A program made the position numbers and the translations under genes. A stretch of DNA of 62,425 bases, the filler included, from Rhabdomonas costata (lineage: Eukaryota), in assembly GCA_019059605.1 (NCBI GenBank). It is 38 parts of 38 records of this genome, joined end to end, with 100 filler letters (N's around TTAATTAATTAA, not from the genome) between each part and the next. Parts side by side here need not be neighbours in the genome. Positions count along the whole stretch, not along the records: positions 57,573 to 59,123 come from JAHMHO010013238.1; 37 more parts are not named here. The stretch is one strand, 5' to 3'. Under the pieces are notes generated by a model, which worked only from the letters and a program-made list of their open reading frames with translations, had not been told where the DNA came from and did not search any database. Shown here one piece after another: positions 57,573 through 59,123 of the stretch; within the stretch, counting starts at the first letter, position 1, and each line of letters begins with the position of its first letter.

Positions 57573-58219
57573 GCTGTACTACAGTAAGGCAAAGCCATAT
57601 ATTTTTGTTGGTCATAGTTGATAGTCATTTCATTGTCGTTGTTAATGCTTTTAATTCTAATAATAAAATCGTCCTCAACTTTCGTAATTTTCAGAATCTC
57701 ATAAATATAGTTCGTAAATAACTCGCAAGATTTTCTCTTAAAGCATTGCCTACAAATTATTTTTTGCCCGACGTAATAGTCAAAAACGTAGTCTTTTCCA
57801 TTACAAGTATAAGTGTACTCAATATAATTATCTGGAACAGATATTAAGTTGTTTTGCACGTGTTGATTAATTTTACATGATCTTGAACGAAAATAGGATA
57901 TGTTTTTCTTTGTTGTTAGATCAGCCATTTTGTTTATAATCTTAAAGTTGTATTTTTTAAAAATATCGATAACATTCATATTCACATCGAAGATATCTTT
58001 CTTGAAACTTTTCAGTTTTTCTCTATCGGCTTCATTTTCTAATCTTTTATTAACTTGCAGTATTATTTGGTTTGGAAACATAAGGTTAATGCACATTATC
58101 AAATATTTGTCTTCGGTTAAGACGTTATTAAGAGCCATATTTATCGGCAAGTTCTGAATTGAATCACCGTTTGCATTAATTTTTTTGTCGGGGTGCAATT
58201 TTATAAATAGATAAATCAT
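57573..58219 (-). CDS. Virus-like SF1 (RecD/Pif1-like) helicase, C-terminal region, truncated
   Basis: AT-rich intronless ORF with YYVGQKIICR...LFTNYIYEI...MALPYCST running off the contig where motif V (TxHxxQG) is expected. Confidence 0.6.
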
Positions 58220-59123
58220 GATGTATAGCCCAAAACTATTATCCGCTATTCATCTATATATAGTAATCATCTATATATCTATTCATCTAGATATCTATCT
58301 ATATATATTACAAATACATAAAATAATTGAAGGTGAAATGATTGATTTTATAGCTGAGTATATTAAAAGTAGTTCATATAATATAAATGATCACAAATTC
58401 AGTAATAAAAATAAAAAAGAAAAAGATTCAAAAATTATTGAAACAAAAACAAAATATTCATATGATACTGAAGAAATTAAAAAACAACTGGATTGCTTAG
58501 ATTATACAAAATTTATTAAACGTGAAGATTGGTTATATTTTGGTTCAATTATTAAAAATATGGGACAAGATTATAAACTTTTTTGTGAATACTCACAAAA
58601 AATGATAAATCAAAATCATGATCCTTGTAAATGTGAATCAACGTTTAAAAGTCTAACAAAAAAGATTATTAATCCGCTTCTAAAGTTAAAACAACTATCG
58701 CAAAGTCATCAAATGGAAAGCATGGAGGGGGAAGTATGAAAGAAATCGTTGTTTATTTTAATTCTAGATATCAGAAGAGATCGAAGATTTATAAGAGGAT
58801 GTGAAACGCAAATGTAACAGAACGCTATTTATTTTCCAAAATGGATCAACTGAATACATTGCAATCAAAAAAGATTATGATTATGATAACATTGATACAA
58901 AAAGAAATGAATTAGCAAAAATTGAAGTATTTAACAAAAATTATAGGTTTTGTACACTATTTTATCGATATTTCGATATTTCATACTAAAGTTGTATGGA
59001 CAGATAATGATGAATTTTGTATAAATATATTTTATCATATTTTCATCAAATTATTAAAACTCCTTGGAATAAAACAAATATTTGTATGGTATTAAATGGT
59101 GATATGGGTTGTGGCAAATCATT
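58218..59123 (+). pseudogene. Decayed primase-helicase (PriCT-2 plus D5-like SF3 helicase)
   Basis: LDCLD...REDWLYFGSIIKN...LFCEYSQK is PriCT-2-like. After stops and frameshifts comes HTKVVW...LYKYILSYFHQIIKTPWNKTNICMVLNGDMGCGKS, with Walker A at 59098-59121. Confidence 0.75.

Follow-up and report, generated by a model that had tools for sequence, protein, structure and literature searches.

A probable polinton-like virus relic with incomplete parts of two replication genes on an AT-rich contig of the Rhabdomonas costata assembly

The stretch of DNA analyzed here, hereafter the window (positions 1-62425; 62,425 nucleotides), is made up of 38 contigs, each 1298-1570 bp long, from the genome assembly of the eukaryote Rhabdomonas costata (GCA_019059605.1), chained by N44 + TTAATTAATTAA + N44 spacers. 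As separate contigs were joined by artificial spacers, their order in the window carries no genomic meaning. One of them, JAHMHO010013238.1 (positions 57573-59123), is the subject of this work. We regard this contig as DNA of a polinton-like virus (PLV; Preplasmiviricota) that carries incomplete parts of two replication genes and is a decaying relic, and assign a probability of roughly 0.62 to this reading. A first-pass annotation made from the sequence alone had taken the contig for a decayed, virus-like replication module, possibly of a PLV or a virophage. Its assignment to this virus family was right, and sequence comparison allows it to be sharpened to a fragment of a Tlr1-like helicase gene of the pPolB-S1H family (protein-primed PolB fused to an SF1 helicase), lying next to what appears to be a broken gene for a PriCT-2 (primase C-terminal 2) domain and an SF3 helicase (S3H).

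The contig had been singled out as far more AT-rich than the host exons, and its composition is indeed distinct. Its GC content was 26.0%, against a mean of 51.9% (standard deviation 3.4; range 41.8-57.6%) in the other 37 contigs of the window (z = -7.7). The contig was AT-rich throughout, with 19-31% GC per 150 nt, and neither end was GC-rich. Two clean open reading frames (ORFs) were found on it in a divergent, head-to-head arrangement, one of 215 codons on the minus strand and the other of 133 codons on the plus strand (Table 1).

A fragment of a Tlr1-like helicase gene

The minus-strand ORF, previously noted as a divergent SF1-helicase-like frame, was firmly placed in a protein family by homology searches. 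An exhaustive HMMER search (phmmer) with this ORF recovered 360 proteins at E<=1e-3, of which 161 fell at E<=1e-10 and two at E<=1e-30, the closest being P0001 (56% identity, E 3.6e-41). Many proteins among the best 150 matches were 1178-1482 aa long and aligned at about residues 820-1300, as exemplified by P0003 (1319 aa), matched at residues 966-1166. Relatives of full length span 1300-1480 aa. Similarly, BLASTP aligned the ORF with residues 1026-1226 of P0013 (1387 aa) at 36% identity (E 3e-37). A hidden Markov model (HMM) of the family, built on 24 relatives, matched the ORF at profile positions 932-1134 of 1286 with E 7.9e-69, while no match to any other six-frame piece of the contig was obtained (next best E 0.33). 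The frame was stop-free in 0 of 2000 shuffles. The surviving part extends from just before SF1 motif III (GD..Q..P, residues 18-25) to PY..T just before motif V, and retains near-invariant residues of the family, including motif III itself.

The literature describes the Tlr1-like helicase as a protein of 1000-1400 aa with a C-terminal SF1 helicase of ~350 aa (PMC5499653). In the Tlr1-like helicases of PLVs, according to the same accounts, an HNH endonuclease follows the helicase, and the palm domain of a protein-primed PolB, in which the first Asp of motif C is replaced, precedes it (PMC5499653, PMC11161782). The more recent of these renames the family the pPolB-S1H fusion, with the domain order TP-vOTU-palm-S1H, TP being the terminal protein (PMC11161782). 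We compared this description with a consensus of 25 aligned sequences of the family found here. The consensus contained the helicase motifs PGVGKTT (Walker A), FDEI, TGD..QL.P and TCHSVQG, polymerase-like motifs in the N-terminal part (D..KAYT and GIKTD), and a C-terminal block CxxC...H...N...CxxCN that weakly matches the HNH enzyme PacI (E 0.29). The profile of the same 25 sequences matched RecD in the PDB with E 8.8e-12, as well as other SF1 enzymes. In seven relatives searched against Pfam, SF1 families (AAA_19, AAA_30, Viral_helicase1 and UvrD_C_2) were detected in 5 of the 7, some of them below the cut-off, and nothing was detected within the first ~880 residues. At the level of sequence motifs, the family consensus thus matches the Tlr1-like helicase as described in these sources (PMC5499653, PMC11161782).

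The ORF on the contig is homologous to the SF1 domain of these proteins, which are assigned to PLVs, Tlr1 elements and transpovirons (PMC5499653, PMC11161782), and it differs from them in being a gene fragment and not a complete member of the family. The large architecture of 1000-1400 aa with a pPolB palm ahead of the helicase was not found on the contig, which covers only about 200 of the roughly 1290 profile positions. The profile match opens exactly at the first residues of the ORF, and homology ends sharply at position 58219, beyond which the family HMM found sequence unrelated to the family and no continuation in a shifted frame. The contig therefore lacks approximately 930 N-terminal profile positions, which comprise the N-terminal region with TP and vOTU, the palm domain and helicase motifs I-II. 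At the other end, the contig stops within the helicase domain and the C-terminus lies beyond the contig end. The nearest relative, P0001, at 56% identity, extends into an HNH-like C-terminus, a feature given for PLVs rather than for transpovirons (PMC5499653, PMC11161782).

Several library matches also started at motif III, and this prompted the idea that the gene is naturally and recurrently split there. We dropped the idea because the breaks in the helicase genes of 33 related loci (see below) vary in position and none lies at ~932.

One further relative deserves mention. P0017 (283 aa, on an ENA contig of 1821 bp; 54% identity) has ~75 residues rich in Pro, Arg, Gly and Ala ahead of helicase sequence of the AT-rich type. 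Such an N-terminus would be in keeping with AT-rich viral sequence joined to GC-rich DNA.

Gene company of the helicase relatives

Scans for related loci were made with an alignment of eight of the 25 sequences. One locus was found in IMG/VR, 32 in metagenomes (one of them being the same contig as the IMG/VR locus; L001 / L014), and a single locus in prokaryotes, of which 185,579 species were covered with one genome each, amounting to 33 distinct loci. Scans of IMG/VR with single proteins and patterns (both ORFs of the contig, P0006 and P0013) returned nothing. The related loci lay on contigs of 4-16 kb, with GC contents of 17.5-46.7%, mostly 19-34%.

An ORF of ~310-360 aa directly downstream of the helicase gene proved to be an rve integrase in all three loci tested (L006, L001 and L034), so that the helicase of the relatives adjoins an rve integrase, as in Tlr1. 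Neighbors in L023 include a packaging ATPase of the A32 type (E 5.7e-12) and, narrowly short of the cut-off, a VLTF3-like protein (E 5.9e-5), and in L006 a papain-like cysteine protease (Peptidase_C1). HNH_3 homing endonucleases were found near the helicase in L002 and L008, the latter also with a RING protein. No capsid gene was identified among the loci of the relatives. As judged from these sequences, the gene company of the relatives is that of PLV/Tlr1-type elements, not of phages. Together with the match to the Tlr1-like family, this bears out the proposal of the first-pass annotation that the contig carries replication genes of the PLV and virophage world, and a PLV-type origin of the helicase fragment is well supported.

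Two of these loci are of interest in themselves. L034, a 15.9-kb contig of 33.6% GC with a full Tlr1-like helicase gene next to one for an rve integrase, was binned as a metagenome-assembled genome (MAG) of Ignavibacteriaceae; the bin is probably wrong and the contig that of a polinton-like virus. L001 / L014, the sole relative in IMG/VR, is a 5658-bp contig filed under a giant-virus MAG. As it carries just the helicase and the rve integrase, a small element of the PLV/Tlr1 type or a transpoviron-like one is a likelier source than a giant virus.

The helicase genes were interrupted in 17 of the 33 loci, at varied positions. In L004, L010, L017, L020, L026, L029, L030 and L031, the frame carried on beyond a single stop; eight of nine such stops checked were TAA or TAG and one was TGA. 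These stops could reflect hosts that read TAA and TAG as residues (the gene of L017 ends in TGA), and could also reflect nonsense decay or assembly error (those of L004 and L010 end in TAA).

A PriCT-2 ORF and its broken continuation

The plus-strand ORF likely contains a real PriCT-2 domain, as had been suspected from the sequence, judging by the agreement of two kinds of comparison. The top Pfam match was PriCT_2, although at 16.4 bits (E 0.012) it stayed short of the cut-off of 22, and in the protein-language-model search of the Atlas 20 of 30 matches were PriCT_2 clusters (top score 0.95, 196/256 features shared). The single relative of the ORF, P0164, encoded on a 616-bp metagenome contig, shared 54% identity (E 3.4e-26) and the same start Met, and its own top Pfam match was again PriCT_2 below the cut-off (E 0.0022, 18.8 bits against 22). 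No longer relatives were found by a word-indexed protein search, and a profile of the pair yielded no meaningful match in the PDB. The AlphaFold model based on the two-row alignment was too poor for a fold search (pLDDT 43.5). None of 2000 shuffles kept the frame free of stops. No AEP or Prim-Pol primase domain lies ahead of PriCT-2, as the ORF starts 46 residues before the domain and is preceded by the spacer and then by the helicase fragment on the opposite strand.

Downstream of this ORF, the reading frame is broken. Over positions 58740-59123, there were 14, 7 and 3 stops in frames 0, 1 and 2, respectively. Two open remnants were recognized in the linker, one in frame 1 (58795-58986, 64 codons) and the other in frame 2 (58916-59092, 59 codons); only 1 of 5000 shuffles contained two open stretches of these lengths. 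Neither Pfam, NCBIfam nor the word-indexed protein search provided a family or a relative for the linker pieces, nor did tblastn against phage records for the 64-codon piece. No single frame connects the PriCT-2 ORF (frame 0) with the Walker A motif at the contig edge (frame 1), and three or more frame changes or in-frame stops occur between about 58737 and 59020. Reassignment of stop codons was considered as the cause of the breaks and ruled out, since the two parts lie in different frames and no in-frame stop occurs in the 348 intact codons of the contig.

The 36 codons ending in the Walker A motif were compared with phage records by tblastn. They matched 32 records, 30 of which covered >=80% of the piece, with a best E of 6e-3; among the 15 records listed of these 32, the annotations were primase in seven, integrase in three, hypothetical in two and none in three. 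One of the phage proteins has the layout Prim-Pol (7-170), PriCT_2 (220-298) and DUF5906 (501-607), and the piece aligns to its residues 477-509 with 14/33 identical (42%). In another, with RepB_primase, DUF5906 (485-593) and VapE-like, it aligns to residues 460-494 (40% of 35 residues). Both alignments fall on the stretch leading into the SF3 Walker A. The Atlas gave two leads below the threshold, a D5_N-bearing cluster (0.82) and a VapE-like cluster (0.80); Pfam gave only generic P-loop matches at E>0.1 for the 36 codons, and for no piece of the contig did PHROGs or NCBIfam return a significant match. The first-pass annotation had proposed a frameshifted SF3 Walker A. The motif GDMGCGKS is present and in another frame than the PriCT-2 ORF, and sequence similarity provides weak but consistent indications of its SF3 (DUF5906-type) nature.

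The presumed layout resembles that of the Prim-Pol/PriCT_2/DUF5906 primase-helicases of phages such as Rhizobium phage RHph_X2_30 and Pseudomonas phage Epa5, in which PriCT-2 is followed by an SF3 Walker A and which show 40-42% identity over the 33-35 residues leading into that motif. About 150 codons separate the PriCT-2 domain from Walker A on the contig, and about 205 do so in the phage Prim-Pol/PriCT_2/DUF5906 protein, and with such similar spacing a single gene composed of PriCT-2, a linker and S3H is plausible. The contig gene differs from the phage proteins in that it is devoid of AEP/Prim-Pol, both the ORF and P0164 beginning at the PriCT-2 part, and in that its frame is broken and the remaining helicase lies beyond the contig end. 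No similarity to the phage primase-helicases was detectable outside the P-loop stretch.

These matches raise the question of a bacteriophage or bacterial contaminant, since the 36-residue Walker A piece matches phage primases only (34-42% identity) and the top PriCT_2 clusters of the Atlas are mostly bacterial. Nevertheless, 50,697 phage records contained no match to the contig by blastn or to the helicase ORF, the PriCT-2 ORF and the 64-codon piece by tblastn, and PHROGs gave nothing significant. Moreover, of the 185,579 prokaryote species searched with one genome each, a single one yielded the helicase family, and the MAG contig concerned resembles a PLV. The best matches of the contig as a whole are hence neither phage nor bacterial, and a contaminant of this kind is largely refuted and in our view extremely improbable.

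The contig might instead be a fragment of a giant-virus (Nucleocytoviricota) genome with captured pieces of PLV replication genes. The genomes of many mimivirids are AT-rich, and 26% GC would fit them; one PriCT_2 cluster of the Atlas derives from Nucleocytoviricota (rank 15, score 0.91), and L001 was binned in a giant-virus MAG. No giant-virus marker is present on the contig, however, and the nearest helicase relatives adjoin an rve integrase on contigs of 4-16 kb. We therefore hold a giant-virus fragment to be very improbable.

Table 1. Features of the contig JAHMHO010013238.1, with positions counted along the window
Feature	Position	Strand	Description	Evidence
Entire free-standing contig	57573-59123		1551 bp	
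5'-truncated Tlr1-like helicase (pPolB-S1H) gene fragment	57573..58219	-	215 codons, runs off contig end	phmmer, BLASTP, family HMM
AT-rich spacer	58220..58337	.	118 nt; three direct repeats, TCTA copies	
Intact ORF with likely PriCT-2 domain	58338..58739	+	133 codons; domain at ~residues 47-107	Pfam (sub-threshold), Atlas
Broken stretch from PriCT-2 domain to helicase P-loop	58740..59013	+	Stops in all three frames	
Candidate start of SF3 (DUF5906/D5/VapE-type) helicase domain	59014..59121	+	36 codons, without ATG, cut by contig end	
Walker A motif GDMGCGKS	59098-59121	+	Frame 1, at contig edge	

Origin and state of the contig

We propose that the contig is a PLV-derived remnant of a known sort, in which the juxtaposition of two alternative replication modules is the sole unusual point. 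The Tlr1-like helicase gene would have lost everything upstream of SF1 motif III, namely the terminal-protein, vOTU and palm domains and the half of the helicase with Walker A and B. The putative PriCT-2 and SF3 (DUF5906/D5-type) gene would open intact, with stops and frame changes preceding its Walker A. As it stands, neither gene would be able to yield a working replication protein. The contig would then be a dead remnant, either a rearranged, decaying copy of one PLV or an element inserted into or recombined with another. Decay had been claimed from the stops and frameshifts. Both genes are indeed incomplete, with ~930 N-terminal positions gone in one and the PriCT-2/S3H frame broken in the other, and we consider decay of the element likely. 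We infer, in addition, that the breaks are real, that the two halves share a locus in vivo, and that the DNA is integrated in the host.

Dead relics of the PLV type are common in the nuclear genomes of protists. A close parallel is offered by the endogenized PLVs of Oxyrrhis marina (OmPLV), which have ~25% GC in a genome of 58% GC and are fragmented, with frameshifts and premature stops interrupting their genes (PMC12721341). More generally, PLVs are reported to expand in protist genomes through repeated insertion (PMC12220804). The contig shares with OmPLV the AT-rich viral DNA set against a GC-richer protist, the fragmentation and the frameshifted genes (PMC12721341). It differs in that the fusion of OmPLV is described as combining a Pif1-type SF1 helicase (Helicase SF1 Pif1-type, PF05970) with pPolB, whereas the helicase found here is Tlr1-like and RecD-like (PMC12721341). 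Furthermore, the account of OmPLV lists no primase-S3H, and it shows integration, which is only inferred here (PMC12721341).

Several observations weigh against a decaying, integrated relic. The contig has no junction with GC-rich host DNA, and a free virus or an element of a co-cultured organism would look alike. The frame breaks and the joint at 58219 could be artefacts of assembly or sequencing. Since 17 of the 33 relatives have interrupted helicase genes, such breaks are common in metagenome data, whatever their cause. The stretches of 215 and 133 codons keep conserved residues, so that any decay would have to be recent or uneven. The S3H assignment is weak, resting on 33-35 residues that include a generic P-loop, with no significant match in Pfam, NCBIfam or PHROGs. 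Lastly, relatives of the PriCT-2 ORF were found in 0 of the 33 related PLV-like loci, and the pairing of the two genes is thus without precedent among them.

Some of these observations would also suit a live exogenous element in the culture, that is, a PLV, a virophage, a transpoviron-like element or a giant-virus partner, in which case the breaks would be artefacts of a low-coverage assembly of short contigs. The contig stands alone, with no rise in GC towards either end, and its intact parts retain the residues conserved in the family. The interruptions in 17 of 33 metagenome relatives may be partly assembly error, and the relative contig L001 was binned with a giant-virus MAG. On the other hand, at least three frame changes plus in-frame stops in about 270 nt, beside clean ORFs, would be an odd pattern of error. 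Helicase homology, moreover, halts at 58219 and gives way to unrelated sequence, not to a shifted continuation. We consider a live element unlikely and retain the decaying PLV relic as the preferred reading.

The first-pass annotation had also raised an undescribed lineage. The term applies only insofar as the nearest relatives are metagenome fragments at 54-56% identity. If the relic is integrated, one more host would be added to the protists known to carry PLV relics, and the assembly probably holds further AT-rich viral contigs.

The spacer and the junction of the two modules

The spacer between the divergent ORFs contains three direct repeats of 16-17 nt at 58246-58298, each with TCTA. Six of the 12 copies of TCTA on the contig lie within the spacer. 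Counting TCTA and TAGA together, the spacer has 7, against a shuffle mean of 1.5, and 3 of 5000 shuffles reached 7. TCTA recalls what we take to be the late-promoter motif of mavirus and Cafeteria roenbergensis virus (CroV). A virophage-type late promoter of the family was nevertheless rejected, because genes in the related loci show no upstream enrichment of TCTA (3.4 vs 4.1 per kb); the copies in the spacer belong to the local repeat. The repeats are not shared by the rest of the window. From its sequence and position, the spacer may be a shared promoter or origin region, the terminus of an element or a recombination joint.

The last of these possibilities bears on whether the two modules belong together. 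According to the published account, the replication protein of a PLV is either pPolB-S1H or a fusion of primase/PolA with S3H (PMC11161782). An assembly chimera would account for the presence of both, with a Tlr1-like helicase element and an unrelated PriCT-2-S3H element joined in the repeat-rich AT spacer. The joint adjoins the low-complexity direct repeats (58246-58294), PLVs are described with either pPolB-S1H or AEP/PolA-S3H (PMC11161782), and none of the 33 related loci contains a relative of the PriCT-2 ORF. Against such a joint, the two halves are equal in composition, the repeats of 16-17 nt are below the usual assembly k-mers and unshared elsewhere in the window, and the broken S3H frame would stay unexplained. 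A chimera therefore appears very improbable to us.

The head-to-head pairing could also be real and belong to one element. It would then represent either an undescribed PLV lineage exchanging its replication module or the terminus of one PLV inserted in the replication gene of another. In the case of module exchange, an AEP-less PriCT-2-S3H gene would displace pPolB-S1H, and the C-terminal half of the helicase would survive as an ORF with its own ATG at the break. In the case of nested insertion, the repeat-bearing spacer would be the end of a PLV inserted into the replication gene of another PLV. The pairing has no counterpart in the loci of the relatives, as noted above, and we regard a single element of this kind as quite unlikely. 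If the junction is real, it would document module exchange or nested insertion directly, on a small scale, since published work treats pPolB-S1H and primase-S3H as alternatives of different PLVs. Otherwise, the contig is an ordinary viral remnant.

Other observations in the contig and the window

No gene for a capsid, minor capsid, packaging ATPase or protease was found on the 1551-bp contig. A scan for bacterial promoters and terminators remained at the level of shuffled sequence, and AAAATTGA, which we take to be the early-promoter motif of mimivirus and used as a query, had one match in the contig and two in the window, as expected by chance. Rfam detected zero RNA families in the window.

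Only 1 of the 38 contigs of the window, 57573-59123 itself, matched the PLV-like loci of the helicase relatives, and no second such contig was found. The contig at 18177-19728 has the second-lowest GC content (41.8%), climbing from 33% to 55% along its length, and showed no similarity to these loci. Another neighboring contig (3306-4813, minus strand) is spanned by an uninterrupted ORF of 502 codons with WD40 repeats, from which we take the bulk of the assembly to be eukaryotic.

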